Part shown: one piece after another, positions 23,289 to 28,447 of the stretch
How positions within the stretch are numbered: the first letter of the stretch is position 1
Layout of the letters: each line of letters starts with the position of its first letter
Source: a virus
Taxonomy: Duplodnaviria; Heunggongvirae; Uroviricota; Caudoviricetes
IMG/VR virus record: IMGVR_UViG_2541047785_000004
Location: 1 to 29,753 of that record
Direction: 5' to 3' (one strand)
Length of the DNA: 29,753 bases
Notes under the pieces: generated by a model
Seen by the model: only the letters and a program-made list of their open reading frames with translations
What the model was told of the DNA's origin: nothing
Database searches by the model: none
Made by a program: the position numbers and the translations under genes

Positions 23289-23411
23289 CGAATGAACTCC
23301 AAAAACACACAGAAATATTAGGCGACGCCTAACGTAAATGTCAATAGGCTATGCCTAATGCGATAAAGGTAGGGATTGCCTAATGCAATGAGCATAGGAG
23401 AATATTAAGCA
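23289..23411. promoter_or_regulatory. Right operator/promoter region: palindromic operators TTAGGC-N3-GCCTAA overlapping a TTGACA-N18-TAATAT promoter for the cro-like gene
   Basis: Perfect palindrome ttaggcgacgcctaa (23318-23332); taggctatgcctaa (23345-23358); half-site ttgcctaatgca (23376-23387); minus-strand -35 TTGACA (23339-23344), -10 TAATAT (23315-23320). Confidence 0.65.
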
Positions 23412-23888
23412 ATGCTTAGTGGTAAAGACTTAGGCCGAGCGATAGAGCAGGCCATTAACAAAAAAATCGCATCGGGATCCGTCAAATCAAAGGCGGAGGT
23501 CGCACGCCACTTCAAAGTCCAACCACCATCAATTTATGACTGGATTAAGAAAGGCTCTATAAGTAAAGATAAACTTCCAGAATTATGGCGTTTCTTTTCT
23601 GATGTTGTTGGTCCAGAGCATTGGGGGCTTAACGAATACCCCATACCAACCCCCACCAATTCAGATACAAAAAGTGAACTTTTAGATATAAACAACCTTT
23701 ATCAAGCAGCCTCTGATGAAATAAGAGCGATTGTAGCTTTCCTGTTATCTGGAAATGCTACAGAACCAGATTGGGTTGACCACGATGTTCGCGCCTACAT
23801 AGCAGCGATGGAAATGAAAGTGGGTAAGTATCTGAAAGCTCTAGAATCTGAACGGAAAAGCCAGAACATCACAAAAACTGGAACTTAA
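23412..23888 (+). CDS. racR: Prophage repressor (RacR-like), 158 aa
   Basis: AGGAG RBS; HTH AEVARHFKVQPPSIYDWIKKGS; divergent from the cro-like gene and flanked on both sides by the same operator repeats; matches Rac RacR as recalled. Confidence 0.8.
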   Translation: MLSGKDLGRAIEQAINKKIASGSVKSKAEVARHFKVQPPSIYDWIKKGSISKDKLPELWRFFSDVVGPEHWGLNEYPIPTPTNSDTKSELLDINNLYQAASDEIRAIVAFLLSGNATEPDWVDHDVRAYIAAMEMKVGKYLKALESERKSQNITKTGT

Positions 23889-23960
23889 ACTTATATGGTC
23901 TGACGGAAAACTCCTAGATTCCGTTATTTAACCCCCCCATCACTTTCTGCTGTCGCCATC

Positions 23961-24027
23961 ACCTATTAGGTTACGATCAAAACATTAGGCATAGCCTATT
24001 GACAATCAATTAGGCATTACCTATAGT
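23961..24027 (+). promoter_or_regulatory. Left operator/promoter region (pL-like): TTGACA-N17-TATAGT with overlapping TTAGGCAT(A/T)(G/A)CCTA operators
   Basis: ttaggcatagccta (23985-23998), ttaggcattaccta (24010-24023); -35 TTGACA 23999-24004, -10 TATAGT 24022-24027; mirrors the cctattgaca motif of the right promoter. Confidence 0.6.
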
Positions 24028-24207
24028 TCCAGCATACCACCCACCCCGCCCCACAGAACGCAGGGCAATACTTCGAGTTACCAGGCAGTGGTCAGGGGTT
24101 AAGTAGCCAGCCCGAGGCGTAAGAACATGACGGCAGGGTTCAACTTTAATAACTATGCAGCAGGTTTTTGTTCCGCTACCCCGGCGTTAAGGGGACATGA
24201 GGTCAAC

Positions 24208-24360
24208 ATGGATACTATCGATCTTGGCAACAACGAATCTCTGGTATACGGCGTGTTTCCCAACCAGGACGGCACATTCACCGCGATGACGTATACCAAA
24301 AGCAAAACGTTTAAAACCGAATCTGGCGCGCGTCGCTGGTTAGCCAGAAATACTGACTGA
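24208..24360 (+). CDS. DUF1391-like small early protein (YdaF/YdfA-like), 50 aa
   Basis: GAGG RBS; MDTIDLGNNESLVYGVFPNQDGTFTAMTYTKSKTFKTESGARRWLARNTD resembles the recalled Rac/Qin YdaF/YdfA family. Confidence 0.6.
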   Translation: MDTIDLGNNESLVYGVFPNQDGTFTAMTYTKSKTFKTESGARRWLARNTD

Positions 24361-24371
24361 TGAGGTTGACT

Positions 24372-24761
24372 ATGGAATTTAAAGATTTACCAAAAGAAAT
24401 CCAAGAAATTGCAGCACATACACTTCGTCAACGTCTGAACGAAGTTGCATTAGAAGCTGAAACGAAAAAAGACATTGATAATATGGCTCGTAATGTGCGC
24501 GATGCGTTTACCGGACTGTATTCTGTTTCTGTTGAGGACAATAACATTCCTGACGAACAGGAAGAGAGTACAGACCCCCACAAATTCTGGAAATCTGTAG
24601 AGGTCATTGCAAAAGCCAAACTACTGGAACTTAACAACTTATATCATCGTGAGAATGATGGTCGTCAATCTTTGCATCATCAGGGAGTCGCCACCCTGAT
24701 AGCTCTAACGAAAGAGCAAGGCGAATATCATCCAGTGGCATTAAACGACACTGTGAAATAG
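24372..24761 (+). CDS. Hypothetical early-left protein, 129 aa (3' end overlaps a convergent ORF)
   Basis: GAGG RBS 7 nt upstream of the ATG at 24372; amphipathic charged N-terminal region; last ~40 codons overlap the minus-strand ORF 24631-24930. Confidence 0.5.
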   Translation: MEFKDLPKEIQEIAAHTLRQRLNEVALEAETKKDIDNMARNVRDAFTGLYSVSVEDNNIPDEQEESTDPHKFWKSVEVIAKAKLLELNNLYHRENDGRQSLHHQGVATLIALTKEQGEYHPVALNDTVK

Positions 24762-24930
24762 TCCATCCATGTTTACGGGATAGATAAAGATATATCGCTT
24801 CGAAACCATCGACATGGTTTGGATAGCCTTCCTCAGCAGCAAGGTTATCCCCAAAACATTCAAGAATATAATTTAAACGCGCTGTTTCATAATGAATCTT
24901 CCAGCGAGTCTGATTTAGTTTGCTGACCAT
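24631..24930 (-). CDS. Hypothetical protein at the sieB-equivalent (convergent) slot, ~99 aa from the ATG at 24930
   Basis: GGAGGA 10 nt upstream of the ATG at 24930; MVSKLNQTRWKIHYETARLNYILECFGDNLAAEEGYPNHVDGFEAIYLYLSRKHGW...; convergent with the early-left operon. Confidence 0.45.
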   Translation of the reverse strand: MVSKLNQTRWKIHYETARLNYILECFGDNLAAEEGYPNHVDGFEAIYLYLSRKHGWTISQCRLMPLDDIRLALSLELSGWRLPDDAKIDDHHSHDDISC

Positions 24931-25278
24931 TTTAATTTTATCCTCCATTGAGGTTACTGGTTGAGAATGGAGACCACACGTGACAGCGCGTGGTCGTGCG
25001 CCGGACACGGATAAGAATCCGGCACAAACAGTTTACTGAAAGGATATATCCCTGAAAAGTCAGGGCATAACGCGAAAGCGCACGGCGAAGTCATTCCTCC
25101 CTTTGTTGTGTACCACTGACATCTTCGTCTGTGCGCTTCCGGTTGTGGCAATCCGCGAAATGGCGCGGCGGTAAGTATGGCGGGGTTATTCCTTCCCCGT
25201 TGAGGACACCGGGTTGTCAGGTTGACCATACGCTTAAGTGACAACCCCGCTGCAACAACCCATGTTGATTACCTTTTG

Positions 25279-25328
25279 GCGGGTATCCGTTTTTTGTTTT
25301 CCCTTGTGATACCCGCCCTTTTTAAAGT
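25279..25328 (+). terminator. Plus-strand intrinsic terminator-like hairpin (10-bp stem ggcgggtatc/gatacccgcc, 20-nt loop, then CTTTTTAAA)
   Basis: Seen directly; in the GC-rich non-coding stretch of the early-left operon. Confidence 0.45.
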
Positions 25329-25506
25329 GAATTTTGTGATGCGGTGAATGCGGCTCAGCGCACGCGGAACAGTTAAAAAGGCCAGTTGACTTCCGTATTG
25401 GTTCTTATGGGTGGGTTCTCTGTATCCGGCGTTAATTATTAACTGGTTAACGTCACCTGGAGGCACCAGGCACCGCATCACAAAATTCATTGTTGAGGAT
25501 GCGATA

Positions 25507-25689
25507 ATGGAAACGTTATTACCAAACGTCAATACGTCTGAAGGTTGTTTTGAAATTGGTGTCAGAATCAGTAACCCTGTATTTACTGAAGATGCCATTA
25601 ATAAGAGAAAACACGAACGGGAGCTATTAAATCAAATATGCATTGTTTCAATGCTGGCCCGTTTACGCCTGATGCAAAAAGGACGATGA
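25507..25689 (+). CDS. Small early protein (KilR/YdaE-position), 60 aa
   Basis: GAGGA RBS before the ATG at 25507; METLLPNVNTSEGCFEIGVRISNPVFTEDAINKRKHERELLNQICIVSMLARLRLMQKGR; stop overlaps the next start (ATGA). Confidence 0.5.
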   Translation: METLLPNVNTSEGCFEIGVRISNPVFTEDAINKRKHERELLNQICIVSMLARLRLMQKGR

Positions 25690-25895
25690 CAATGAATACA
25701 GTATTTGCACTCGTTCTGACGGTTTTTCTTAATACAGGCGAGCCAGTCGATCTTGTTATTGGTATACATGACTCAATGAAAGAATGCATGGCTGCCGCAG
25801 CGGAACAGAAAATTCCCGGCAACTGTTATCCGGTTGATAAAGTTATTCGCATGGACAATAACGAAATCCCGGCAGGACTTAAAACAGCACCGTAA
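25686..25895 (+). CDS. Small protein with hydrophobic N-terminus (signal/anchor-like), 69 aa
   Basis: MTMNTVFALVLTVFLNTGEPVDLVIGIHDSMKECMAAAAEQKIPGNCYPVDKVIRMDNNEIPAGLKTAP; translationally coupled to the upstream ORF. Confidence 0.5.
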   Translation: MTMNTVFALVLTVFLNTGEPVDLVIGIHDSMKECMAAAAEQKIPGNCYPVDKVIRMDNNEIPAGLKTAP

Positions 25896-25975
25896 TTAAT
25901 ATCCGGTTTCATTTTTATATGCCAGCAATGGCAGGGATTTGTTCACCCTTAAATCTGTAATGAGGTTAAAACAAA

Positions 25976-28447
25976 ATGAGTAAAGTCTTTATTTGCGCCG
26001 CCATTCCGGACGAACAGGCAATAAAGGAAGAAGGTGCAGTCGCTGTAGCCACTGCCATTGAAGCCGGCGACGAACGCCGCGCCCGAGCCAAATTTACCTG
26101 GCAATTCCTGGAGCAATATCCGGCTGCTCAGGACTGCGCTTATAAATTTCTTGTTTGCGAGGATAAACCCGGCATGCCCCGCCCTGCCATCGACTCCTGG
26201 GATACCGAATATATGCAGGAAAACTGCTGGGATGAGGAATCCGCTTCCTTTATTCCGGTCGAACCAGAATCCGATCCGATGAACGTCAATTTTGACAAGC
26301 TGTCCCCTGAAGTACAGAACGCGGTCCTGGTTAAGTTCGACACATGTGAAAACATCACCATTGATATGGTTATTAGCGCACAGGAATTGTTGCAGGAAGA
26401 CATGGCAACATTCGACGGACATATCGTTGAAGCGTTGATGAAAATGCCAGAAGTTAACGCCATGTATCCGGAGCTTAAGTTGCACGCCATTGGGTGGGTT
26501 AAGCATAAATGTATTCCTGGTGCTAAATGGCCCGAAATTCAGGCAGAGATGCGCATCTGGAAAAAACGTCGCGAAGGTGAACGCAAGGAAACCGGAAAAT
26601 ACACGTCTGTTGTTGATCTCGCCCGCGCCAGAGCCAATCAACAGTACACTGACAATTCAACAGGAAAAATCAGCCCGGTCATTGCTGCCACTCATCGCGA
26701 ATACAAGCAGACATGGAAAACACTGGATGACGAACTGGCCTACGCTCTCTGGCCTGGTGATGTGGATGCCGGAAACATTGACGGCAGCATCCATCGCTGG
26801 GCAAAAAATGAAGTTATCGACAACGACCGCGAAGACTGGAAGCGTATCTCGGCATCAATGCGCAAACAGCCTGATGCCCTTCGCTACGACCGCCAGACTA
26901 TTTTTGGCCTTGTCCGTGAACGTCCGATCGACATTCACAAAGACCCTGTGGCACTGAACAAATACATTACTGAATACCTGACTACAAAGGGCGTGTTTGA
27001 AGATGAAGGAAGAAATCAGAGCGCAACTGATACTCTCTCGTCGCCAGTACCAGAAACTGATGCAGTGGAAACGGCAATTCCGGACAACGAAAAAACCGAA
27101 TGCAAAGTGGAAGTCGAACCATCTGTAGAGCGTGAGGGGCCGTTCTACTTCCTCTTCACCGACAAGGATGGCGAAAAATATGGTCGCGCAAACAAACTTT
27201 CTGGTCTGAATAAGGCGCTGACTGCAGGGGCTACTGAAATCACGAAAGAAGAATATTTTGCCCGTAAAAACGGTACATACTCAGGTTCACAACAAAATAC
27301 TGGTGCATCTGACACGACCGCACAACCAGAGCCGGTAAAAGTTACCGCTGACGAAGTAAACAAAATTATGCAGGCAGCCAATATCACCCAGCCTGACGCC
27401 GATAAGTTGCTTGCTGTATCACGTGGTGAATTTGTTGCAGGGATTAGCGACCCGAATGATCCGAAATGGGTGAAGGGGATTGAAACCCGCGATTCAGTGA
27501 ATCAGAACCAGCAAGAAACGGAACAGAACGACCAGAAAGCGGAACAAAACAGCCCAAATGCGTTACAAAACGAGCCAGAAACGAAACAACCTGAGCCAGT
27601 AGCGCAACAGGAAGCGGAAAAAGTCTGCACCGCCTGCGGTCAGACCGGCGGCGGCAACTGCCCTGATTGTGGTGCGGTGATGGGCGACGCAACATACCAG
27701 GAAACATTCGATGACAAGAACCAGGTTGAAGTTCAGGAAGACGATTCGGAGAAAATGGAAGGCGCTGAACATCCACACAAAGAGAATGCTGGCAGCGCTC
27801 AGGATCACGCCAGCGATAGTGAAACTGGCGAGACGGCAGATCCCTTAATTACGGTGAACGGTCATCACGTTATCACATCCACCAGCAGGACGTGTGACCA
27901 TCTAATGATCGACCTTGAAACCATGGGAAAAAATCCTGATGCCCCGATTATCTCAATAGGTGCAATATTTTTCGATCCTCAAACCGGAGATATGGGACCG
28001 GAATTTAGTAAGACTATCGATCTGGAAACTGCTGGCGGAGTCATTGATCGGGACACCATTAAATGGTGGCTTAAGCAATCACGCGAAGCGCAATCTGCCA
28101 TTATGACCGATGAAATCCCGTTAGATGATGCACTGTTACAATTGCGGGAATTTATCGACGAAAACTCCGGTGAATTTTTTGTTCAGGTCTGGGGAAATGG
28201 AGCCAACTTCGACAACACGATTTTGCGCCGTTCATACGAACGGCAGGGGATCCCCTGCCCGTGGCGTTACTACAACGATCGCGATGTACGCACAATCGTT
28301 GAGCTGGGGAAAGCCATAGACTTCGATGCCAGAACGGCTATTCCATTCGAAGGTGAGCGCCATAATGCACTTGATGACGCCCGTTACCAGGCAAAATACG
28401 TTTCAGCAATCTGGCAAAAACTGATCCCGAATCCGGTTGATTTTTAA
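25976..28447 (+). CDS. RecE-like large recombination protein with a CxxC…CxxC zinc ribbon and a C-terminal DnaQ-like DEDDh 3'-5' exonuclease domain, 823 aa
   Basis: Central region (EREGPFYFLFTDKDGEKYGRAN…, DADKLLAVSRGEFVAGISDPNDPKWVKGIETRD) resembles recalled RecE N-terminal/middle segments; zinc ribbon CTACGQTGGGNCPDCG; exonuclease motifs MIDLETMG (Exo I), WGNGANFDNTIL (Exo II), HNALDDARY (Exo III, DEDDh). Confidence 0.8.
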   Translation: MSKVFICAAIPDEQAIKEEGAVAVATAIEAGDERRARAKFTWQFLEQYPAAQDCAYKFLVCEDKPGMPRPAIDSWDTEYMQENCWDEESASFIPVEPESDPMNVNFDKLSPEVQNAVLVKFDTCENITIDMVISAQELLQEDMATFDGHIVEALMKMPEVNAMYPELKLHAIGWVKHKCIPGAKWPEIQAEMRIWKKRREGERKETGKYTSVVDLARARANQQYTDNSTGKISPVIAATHREYKQTWKTLDDELAYALWPGDVDAGNIDGSIHRWAKNEVIDNDREDWKRISASMRKQPDALRYDRQTIFGLVRERPIDIHKDPVALNKYITEYLTTKGVFEDEGRNQSATDTLSSPVPETDAVETAIPDNEKTECKVEVEPSVEREGPFYFLFTDKDGEKYGRANKLSGLNKALTAGATEITKEEYFARKNGTYSGSQQNTGASDTTAQPEPVKVTADEVNKIMQAANITQPDADKLLAVSRGEFVAGISDPNDPKWVKGIETRDSVNQNQQETEQNDQKAEQNSPNALQNEPETKQPEPVAQQEAEKVCTACGQTGGGNCPDCGAVMGDATYQETFDDKNQVEVQEDDSEKMEGAEHPHKENAGSAQDHASDSETGETADPLITVNGHHVITSTSRTCDHLMIDLETMGKNPDAPIISIGAIFFDPQTGDMGPEFSKTIDLETAGGVIDRDTIKWWLKQSREAQSAIMTDEIPLDDALLQLREFIDENSGEFFVQVWGNGANFDNTILRRSYERQGIPCPWRYYNDRDVRTIVELGKAIDFDARTAIPFEGERHNALDDARYQAKYVSAIWQKLIPNPVDF

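Follow-up and report, generated by a model that had tools for sequence, protein, structure and literature searches.

A putative mobile cassette of two convergent, overlapping genes in the sieB slot of a Rac/Qin-type Escherichia coli prophage

In the Rac prophage of Escherichia coli K-12 the genes follow one another in the order racR, ydaG, ydaF (DUF1391), sieB on the opposite strand, kilS, kilR, ydaE, racC and recE. SieB, a superinfection-exclusion protein known also from P22 and lambda, is a membrane protein with hydrophobic segments. BstA, another prophage protein, has about 300 amino acids (aa) and a KilA-N-type domain, and its gene sits in the prophage immunity/early region. Antisense control through transcripts that overlap at their 3' ends is known from the lambda OOP RNA and cII, and from type I toxin-antitoxin pairs such as txpA/RatA and bsrG/SR4 of Bacillus subtilis. 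Morons are independent transcription units inserted in phage operons (PMC3594210), and their expression in lysogens has been described (PMC7067206). In the BstA-aba system a prophage protein causes abortive infection, and its own locus contains an element for self-immunity, aba, which is 63 base pairs (bp) of DNA at the 5' end (PMC8585504). The locus compared with these systems here lies in the 29,753 nucleotides (nt) of IMG/VR virus record IMGVR_UViG_2541047785_000004 (the whole of this stretch is called the window), a Rac/Qin-type E. coli prophage. It consists of two convergent, overlapping open reading frames (ORFs) in the early-left region, a 129-aa plus ORF and a 99-aa minus gene, the latter also called the cargo gene.

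An earlier note on this DNA had described the convergent overlap of a 129-aa and a ~99-aa ORF at the sieB-equivalent position, each with a plausible ribosome-binding site, and had supposed that one of the two frames was an artefact: either the minus-strand gene was a replaced exclusion gene and the tail of the plus ORF read-through, or the reverse. The overlap is as described, with 131 bp (24631-24761) shared by the plus ORF at 24372-24761 and the minus ORF at 24930-24631. Both ribosome-binding sites are present as well: the Shine-Dalgarno (SD) sequence of the plus ORF is GAGG at 24362-24365, 6 nt ahead of its ATG, and that of the minus gene is GGAGGA. The choice between the two frames did not hold, as both are conserved and travel together in many phages, and we are quite confident that both are genuine genes forming a conserved cassette. 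A chance ORF was considered for either frame and ruled out by homology, because each frame has open homologs at 40-80% aa identity with start signals of its own.

The plus frame in the ORF list is 24360-24761; its internal ATG at 24372, which yields 129 aa, is the start of the coding sequence (CDS) annotated by the Prokaryotic Genome Annotation Pipeline (PGAP) in E. coli NZ_OU342919.1, a record identical (100%) to the window over 23300-26100. The minus frame listed is 24631-25008, with 125 aa from a GTG, and an in-frame ATG at 24930 gives 99 aa; a methionine at this position is the start in all minus-gene homologs. PGAP lists for NZ_OU342919.1, in order, a ydaT-like gene, ydaS, racR, the DUF1391 gene, the 129-aa plus ORF, dicB, the DUF1482 gene and a RecE-type exonuclease. 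No minus-strand CDS is annotated in this region in NZ_OU342919.1 or in three further E. coli RefSeq records; one of the four is a Shiga toxin-producing E. coli (STEC) O121 strain. The minus gene was likely missed by annotation since it overlaps an annotated CDS on the opposite strand.

Judged by comparison, the minus ORF appears to be a genuine gene, since it has homologs, a conserved SD and start, selection visible in the ratio of non-synonymous to synonymous differences (pN/pS), a family of 179 clusters and a confident fold model. A word-indexed search with its protein returned only three clusters, among them one from Raoultella and one from a metagenome, at 57-59% identity. Pattern scans found homologs in 29 viral loci and in a Morganella genome; these loci, Raoultella and Morganella lie at 53-66% identity and a Salmonella homolog (L044) at ~42%, so that ~15 diverged prophage lineages hold minus-gene homologs at 42-66%. 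In every diverged lineage the frame stays open for 93-103 codons with its start aligned with ATG 24930, and in all diverged homologs an AAGGA-type SD stands 7-8 nt before the ATG or GTG. With pS close to saturation, pooled pN/pS comes to 0.23-0.31. Searched with a profile, 1.8 billion representatives yielded 179 family clusters at E < 0.001, mostly of 90-100 aa and with homologs open down to ~30% identity. The family consensus is Y.LE.FGD.LA...GY....G.EAI..YL..KH.W.P..VR.M...DLR..L..EM.GW..P..A, and every named member that was examined is called 'hypothetical protein'.

AlphaFold2 gave a confident all-helical model of the minus protein (predicted local distance difference test, pLDDT, 82), for which a fold search returned no significant structural neighbour. 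The protein is soluble and acidic (isoelectric point 5.35, grand average of hydropathy -0.46, maximal Kyte-Doolittle 19-residue mean 0.57), with no transmembrane segment by hydropathy. Neither the 99-aa nor the 125-aa product has a Pfam match at E up to 0.1, none of 32 family members matches Pfam, and the minus protein has no PHROG match. In PADLOC-DB 2.0, neither protein of the pair nor two homologs match any defence model at E up to 1. SieB or Rex homology of the minus protein was considered and rejected, given no Pfam, PHROG or PADLOC match. The sole similarity to a named family is to NCBIfam NF033230, 'ECs1072 family phage-associated protein' (E 3e-7, 30.6 bits, aa 17-87); at 30.6 bits against a curated cut-off of 70 the minus protein stands outside this family, as a distant relative only. 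A literature search returned nothing on the cargo family, and ECs1072 appears only in a microarray table. In some family members (P0125, P0126, P0130 and P0138) the ~90-aa cargo domain is tandemly duplicated in one polypeptide, which hints at a dimer as the functional unit of the cargo protein.

The plus ORF matches phrog_1363 at E 5.6e-39 (aa 1-110), and its aa 61-127 match phrog_25397 at E 1e-15, both of unknown function; its full-length homologs have 67-97% identity. Over its first ~52-55 residues, about 40-47% of its length, it resembles at least 150 proteins with unrelated C-termini, among them a 212-aa 'Ybl81' type, a 124-aa type and a 180-aa type, and aa 1-54 match phrog_2151 and phrog_9419. 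The C-terminal FW module appears to be the second gene of the cassette, fused in frame here to this common N-terminal module. The strand opposite the cargo gene was translated in every diverged locus to look for the FW frame, and the antisense frame (codon position 1 opposite position 1) was found open across the cargo 3' end in 15 of 15 lineages examined. The FW motif across lineages is M-x(3-10)-[LM]TPxEFWxxVKxxAxxxLxEL, which reads DPHKFWKSVEVIAKAKLLEL in the window. The FW frame begins 21-35 codons (64-106 nt) past the cargo stop, and its overlap with the cargo gene ranges from 89 to 254 nt between lineages, the position of the plus-frame stop being variable.

Stand-alone FW ORFs have an ATG of their own with AGGAG, GGAGG or AAGGAG 5-9 nt ahead, clear in most lineages and weak in the Morganella pair L010/L038. 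Some gene callers report FW ORFs as proteins of 55-119 aa, and an FW ORF also lies beside the ~42%-identical Salmonella homolog (L044). Where FW does not overlap the cargo gene (20 codons), pairwise comparison gives differences of 0.42 at the first codon position, 0.32 at the second and 0.53 at the third; every base is used at the third position of the conserved Ala, Val and Pro codons, and the Trp is invariant. An open antisense frame as a mere by-product of the cargo protein sequence was considered and dropped, because the FW ORFs have their own SD and ATG and because, of six distant family members that occur in other contexts, five have a closed or motif-less frame beside them, so that its openness is not automatic. 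In L040, L045, L052 and L054 the overlap is at most 35 nt, and in L043 there is a 56-aa open stretch without the FW motif; the exception is the high-GC L047, where the frame is long and open, but without the motif.

Constraint on the two frames was estimated from the plus ORF and its 67%-identical Salmonella homolog L009, both exactly 129 aa long, as the ratio of non-synonymous to synonymous substitution rates (dN/dS). For the plus frame the ratio is 0.35 over aa 1-55 and 0.38 over aa 56-86, the non-overlapping FW part, and inside the overlap it is ~1.2, against 0.23 for the minus frame. Nucleotide identity to L009 is 87% inside the overlap versus 76-78% outside, and cargo pS is 0.53-0.61 in the overlapped third versus 0.74-0.83 elsewhere. 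These data suggest that the overlap is shaped mainly by the cargo protein, and that the plus frame is held open there under weak constraint. The read-through tail proposed in the earlier note is borne out in one respect, the near-neutral plus frame of the overlap with its variable stop, and contradicted in another, the FW frame being a conserved gene. The same note had called for a comparison of both frames across related prophages and named loss of conservation in one of them as the outcome against its reading; in that comparison both frames were conserved.

The conserved FW peptide motif and the cargo terminator are the same DNA. When the 140 nt past the cargo stop were folded on the cargo strand, a hairpin followed by a T-rich run was found in most lineages, 25-55 nt downstream. 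The stems sit at different offsets from CCAGAA, and for this reason the terminator test was a per-lineage scan with shuffles. Of 14 lineages, 6 had a hairpin and T-run in this strict scan, where the shuffles predict 0.78, and none had one on the other strand. The stems vary (GACGCC/GGCGTC, TTCCGCCA/TGGCGGAA, AAGCC/GGCTT, CGGTATTC/GAATACCG), and each of them is built around CCAGAA, which is complementary to the F-W codons; read from the other strand, the GC-rich 3' arm gives T-P and the U-run gives Lys codons. The FW ORF starts just beyond this terminator. In the window, terminator-like hairpins lie 25-85 nt past the minus-gene stop. The one at 24573-24605 is the counterpart of the intrinsic terminators elsewhere, here without a clean U-run, and both it and the second hairpin fall inside the acidic linker of the plus ORF. 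The FW motif had been taken for pure protein conservation; after its match with the terminator hairpin this was revised, and both constraints are now assumed. The terminator embedded at the FW motif supports the cargo gene as an independent unit.

The minus gene appears to be replacement cargo in the sieB slot of Rac, in line with the earlier note, whose comparison with the lambda rex genes is purely positional. In blastn against K-12 Rac, homology stops at 24341, the end of the DUF1391 gene, and resumes at 25307, in the kilS region; because it breaks at 24342-25306, the pair is placed exactly in the slot that in K-12 follows the DUF1391 gene and holds sieB on the opposite strand. In HUSEC2011 the homology blocks are 24041-24523 and 24935-25600 (the latter 86.9% overall), and the variable segment runs from just past the N-terminal module to the minus start codon. 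Homology to RM11911 ends at 24428 and resumes at 25055. The leader and SD (24935-25010) are common to the minus gene and to a different, 64-aa cargo in HUSEC2011. Elsewhere the slot is filled on the opposite strand by a 148-aa protein that has a hydrophobic segment (RM11911), by one of 69 aa (E200086) or by SieB, and the C-terminal part of the plus ORF differs with each alternative cargo. In one such prophage (L058), the 212-aa plus ORF and the 69-aa gene abut without a gap. The segment 24540-25010 is covered to at least 80% in only 39 of 5426 complete E. coli genomes.

Outside E. coli, in Raoultella, several metagenomic phages and Salmonella, the cargo gene lies between an S24/helix-turn-helix (HTH) repressor and early-left genes (RdgC, YfdP, DUF2303), on the strand opposite both, as in the window. 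In phage phiSTEC1589-Stx1c (PQ600364.1) the pair is found in the replication/nin region, where an annotated 166-aa CDS ends in the FW module (..PSVFWNTVEAIARSKIFEF...LLREQGECPQSTLNDTEQ) and overlaps by 122 nt an intact, unannotated 96-aa cargo homolog with a good SD (L059:3501-3791). In L032 a longer ORF lying upstream (..GKFPSRRQLGGRSVGW..), AlpA-like by eye, carries the FW module as a fusion. The orientation of the cassette is constant, with the FW strand along the host operon and the cargo against it, and FW is either free-standing or fused to an upstream ORF. Pairing, relative frame and orientation are kept over ~15 diverged lineages and three genomic positions, a pattern which points to the pair as a mobile two-gene cassette. 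Distant members occur as lone opposite-strand genes between antiterminator Q and the lysis genes (L054), in the head-gene region (L047) and in chromosomal islands, and these scattered sites suggest moron-like behaviour (PMC3594210). About 1.3 kb from the L054 member (L054:1476-1706), which belongs to a metagenomic prophage, lies a gene that matches the Acb2/Tad1-hairpin (anti-defence) family in Pfam.

The cargo gene has been inactivated repeatedly. Among 15 near-identical E. coli alleles, nine are intact, one carries E15* (24888), and five carry both Q7* and E15* (24912, 24888); in these nonsense alleles (L017-L021, L057) the stops are the only differences within the 300-bp gene. In Salmonella L009 the plus ORF is kept, the 5' half of the cargo gene is lost, and the 3' remnant (L009:4320-4454) has a Trp-to-stop change. 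L035 differs from its near-twin L026 by a 1-nt deletion, for which a sequencing error is possible. The recurrent knock-outs suggest that the cargo product is costly, or at least dispensable, and argue indirectly that the gene is expressed.

As to how such a pair might work, we tentatively propose a regulatory and functional logic that we regard as doubtful. The cargo gene would be an independent, moron-like unit, expressed alone in the repressed prophage. The plus ORF would belong to an early-left (dicB-type) operon driven from 23999-24027, a site placed as the early-left promoter because of gene order and its consensus match. It is likely the promoter of the DUF1391/plus ORF/dicB operon, running antisense through the minus gene, and is probably under repressor control. 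On derepression, early-left transcription and translation would run head-on through the cargo gene. Over ~160-220 nt, between the terminator hairpins (~24540-24605) and the plus stop at 24761, the plus and minus mRNAs would be fully complementary. Cargo expression would in this way be switched off on derepression, as part of a lysogeny/lytic switch, and the FW product might counteract the cargo protein. The cargo protein itself may be a costly exclusion, abortive-infection or toxin-like factor, a role proposed from its position, its moron-like behaviour and its recurrent inactivation only. The features on which these proposals draw are collected in Table 1.

Table 1. Coordinates of the overlapping gene pair and of the associated signals in the window, with cargo genes of related prophages
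Feature	Position	Strand	Description
Plus ORF	24372..24761	+	129 aa, PGAP hypothetical protein WP_021534155.1, two-module fusion
N-terminal module	24372..24536	+	aa 1-55, MEFKDLPKEIQEIAAH...; common to prophage proteins with unrelated C-termini
FW module	24576..24761	+	aa 69-129, ..HKFWKSVEVIAKAKLLEL...TKEQG..; stand-alone small ORF elsewhere
Minus gene	24631..24930	-	99 aa, putative cargo gene in sieB slot
Convergent 3'-3' overlap	24631..24761	.	131 bp; codon position 1 opposite position 1
SD of minus gene, GGAGGA	24941..24946	-	11 nt ahead of ATG 24930; read from sequence
Exchangeable cassette, FW module and minus gene	24524..24934	.	blastn borders shared with related prophages
15-bp hairpin, loop CCA of CCAGAA	24573..24605	-	just past minus stop; complement of F-W codons 24585-24590
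Second hairpin, TTCCTG-ttcgt-CAGGAA then TGTTATTGT	24538..24563	-	terminator-like site for minus transcript
5' leader of minus gene, two small hairpins	24931..25010	-	common to HUSEC2011
Candidate minus-gene promoter, TTTTCA-17-TAAACT	25030..25058	-	by eye, 8/12 matches, low confidence
Sigma-70-type promoter, TTGACA-17-TATAGT	23999..24027	+	scan, 11/12 matches; between racR and DUF1391 gene
Other cargo genes in slot	L050:1808-2002(-), L051:1822-2268(-), L058:1710-1919(-), L049:5672-6160(+)		related E. coli prophages

Upstream of the minus gene, the leader holds two inverted repeats within 24960-25010 (GACCAC..GTGGTC and GCCGGA..TCCGGC), conserved in HUSEC2011, and the candidate promoter is conserved there as well. 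On the other side of the pair, the DUF1391 gene (24127-24360, plus strand) has 77 aa from an upstream ATG in the ORF list, and PGAP gives only the last 50 codons (24208-24360); the Pfam match spans aa 29-75 of this ORF, and the true start is uncertain. Upstream of dicB, the segment 25307-25491 (plus strand) has 80% identity to the kilS small-RNA region of K-12 Rac. An Rfam search gave STnc100 at 25330-25484 with 33.5 bits, below the gathering score of 47. Rfam gave no DicF match, despite the Qin-like flanks (DUF1391, dicB, DUF1482), and one spurious snoRNA match within the pair.

Overall, the explanation we favour, with moderate confidence, is that the two genes form a mobile cassette which occupies the opposite-strand cargo slot of a Rac/Qin-type prophage. 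Several points weigh against it or against the logic proposed for it. We infer transcription of either strand and translation of either frame from the sequence, and the promoter scan found no minus-gene promoter above threshold, the candidate with 8/12 matches lying below it. The plus-frame ratio in the overlap reflects 3 synonymous and 13 non-synonymous changes, only 16 substitutions in all. Given the coincidence with the hairpin, part of the amino-acid conservation of FW may be structural. The AlphaFold2 model of the plus ORF is poor (pLDDT 47, two helical hairpins and a disordered linker), and at this score it is unusable for a fold search. Synonymous-codon shuffles were mostly non-significant per lineage (P 0.01-0.9), a test not decisive alone; combined over 12 lineages P is 0.0012, an optimistic value since the lineages are not independent. 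Finally, the nonsense alleles could be plain decay of a dispensable gene in a cryptic prophage.

Some of these points are shared by a rather unlikely alternative, in which only the minus gene makes a functional protein and the FW frame is translated, or merely open, for a reason in cis. Ribosomes would be kept on the early-left transcript across the hairpin and antisense region, preventing pausing and Rho-dependent polarity on dicB and recE. That the FW motif maps onto the terminator hairpin would fit, as would the near-neutral plus frame in the overlap, the variable FW stop (89-254 nt of overlap), the poor model of the plus ORF and the fusion of the FW module to three unrelated N-termini, and so would the ~740 nt of untranslated antisense/intergenic RNA that still have to be crossed before dicB. 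However, it is not only within the hairpin but also past it that the codons of conserved Ala, Val, Lys and Pro residues vary at their third position and that the Trp is invariant, and an amphipathic VKxxAxxxLxEL is kept in the stretch from the hairpin to the cargo stop. Salmonella, moreover, retains the full 129-aa frame after loss of the cargo, and dN/dS is 0.38 in the non-overlapping FW part. A sub-case of the favoured cassette, a protein-level toxin-antitoxin-like or defence/self-immunity module, is itself unlikely: the lysogen would make the 99-aa protein as an effector of growth inhibition or abortive infection, and FW, made early after induction, would be its cognate antagonist. The strict co-occurrence of the pair in prophage contexts at three genome positions is consistent with this, as are the recurrent inactivation of the 99-aa gene and a slot that holds SieB and other small cargo genes, and built-in self-immunity has a precedent in BstA-aba (PMC8585504). 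Yet there is no homology to any toxin, antitoxin or defence model, many family members lack an FW partner, and physical overlap alone could account for the co-occurrence.

We consider quite unlikely the still more specific proposal of a previously unrecognised two-component system, with a lysogen-made ~95-aa helical effector that would harm rival phages or the host cell and an early-lytic cognate partner encoded antisense over the terminator and 3' end of the effector gene. If it were true, induction would silence the effector through collision and RNA duplex while the FW protein neutralised it, the overlap would enforce co-inheritance of effector and self-immunity, and the varied plus-ORF C-termini and cargos of the slot would be a library of cognate pairs. 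A regulatory or host-modulating role of the 99-aa protein in place of exclusion, for instance as an HTH-like DNA binder or through inhibition of a host protein, with an overlap that is incidental to tight packing, is very unlikely. The tandem duplications, which suggest a dimeric unit, and family members in non-phage chromosomal contexts speak for such a role, but the fold matches are insignificant, no HTH family matches, and the overlap partner is conserved and hence not incidental. PGAP, which annotates only the plus ORF in the E. coli records examined, implies that the minus ORF arose by chance, antisense to a single real gene; the probability of this is negligible, and on the comparative data we regard this view as already refuted. 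Against it stand homologs open to ~30% identity in 179 clusters, the conserved SD and start, strong purifying selection, a confident fold prediction and homologs that exist without a plus ORF opposite.

A conserved protein gene has thus far gone unannotated in the four E. coli RefSeq records examined, as well as in at least one Stx phage genome as deposited. The pair is a well-supported example from bacteria of two convergent genes that keep a long overlap across diverged phages, with the intrinsic terminator of one gene inside the coding sequence of the other. It is a tractable model in which dual coding, RNA structure and antisense regulation would constrain one stretch of DNA. Repeated knock-out, as seen in the cargo, is what one would expect for exclusion, abortive-infection or toxin-like genes, and because of these knock-outs and the sieB slot the 179-cluster family is a reasonable candidate for functional screening. 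Even if the function is mundane, the locus remains a clean mosaic cassette exchange with mapped borders.

Among described systems, the closest in position is sieB of Rac, with which the minus gene shares slot and orientation, downstream of the DUF1391 gene, upstream of a kilS-like small RNA and opposite the racR/early-left strand. The 3' end of both abuts or overlaps a convergent early gene, by 4 nt for sieB and ydaF in K-12, whereas the overlap here is 131 bp and has a conserved partner ORF. The proteins differ: the minus protein has no PF14163 match, where K-12 SieB scores 1.5e-31 in a like scan, and it is soluble, without a hydrophobic segment, and 99 instead of 162 aa long. Position in the slot alone gives no membership in the SieB family. 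The Qin dicB operon (ydfA-ydfB-ydfC-dicF-dicB-ydfD) has the same succession of repressor, promoter, DUF1391 gene (ydfA/ydaF type), variable small genes, small-RNA region, dicB and DUF1482 gene. In the window, however, the FW/99-aa cassette replaces ydfB and ydfC, and the small-RNA region is like that of Rac kilS, not DicF.

With morons the cargo gene has in common that it is a small opposite-strand gene of variable presence, with a terminator and a leader common to alternative cargos, and its relatives occupy classic moron sites (the Q-lysis gap and the head-gene region). The differences are a conserved second ORF, which spans the terminator and 3' end of the cargo gene on the opposite strand, a G+C content that does not stand out from the flanks, and a promoter that is only a candidate. 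The likeness to BstA-aba is a conceptual analogy only, a built-in overlapping element that would spare its own prophage at induction (PMC8585504). There is no homology between the two by Pfam or PADLOC, and the overlapping element here is a predicted translated ORF at the 3' end. As in OOP-cII and type I pairs, the predicted convergent transcripts would be complementary over ~100-200 nt at their 3' ends in a prophage setting, a layout that would permit RNase III-type mutual down-regulation. In contrast to type I toxin-antitoxin systems, both partners code for conserved proteins: the cargo product is soluble and 99 aa long instead of a small hydrophobic peptide, and the antisense strand holds a conserved ORF with SD and ATG. 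NF033230 is matched by many distant cargo relatives too, but is a family of 142 aa, a hypothetical-protein equivalog and itself uncharacterised. Belonging to no characterised family, the cassette is best described as an immunity-region cargo gene with a conserved antisense-overlapping partner.

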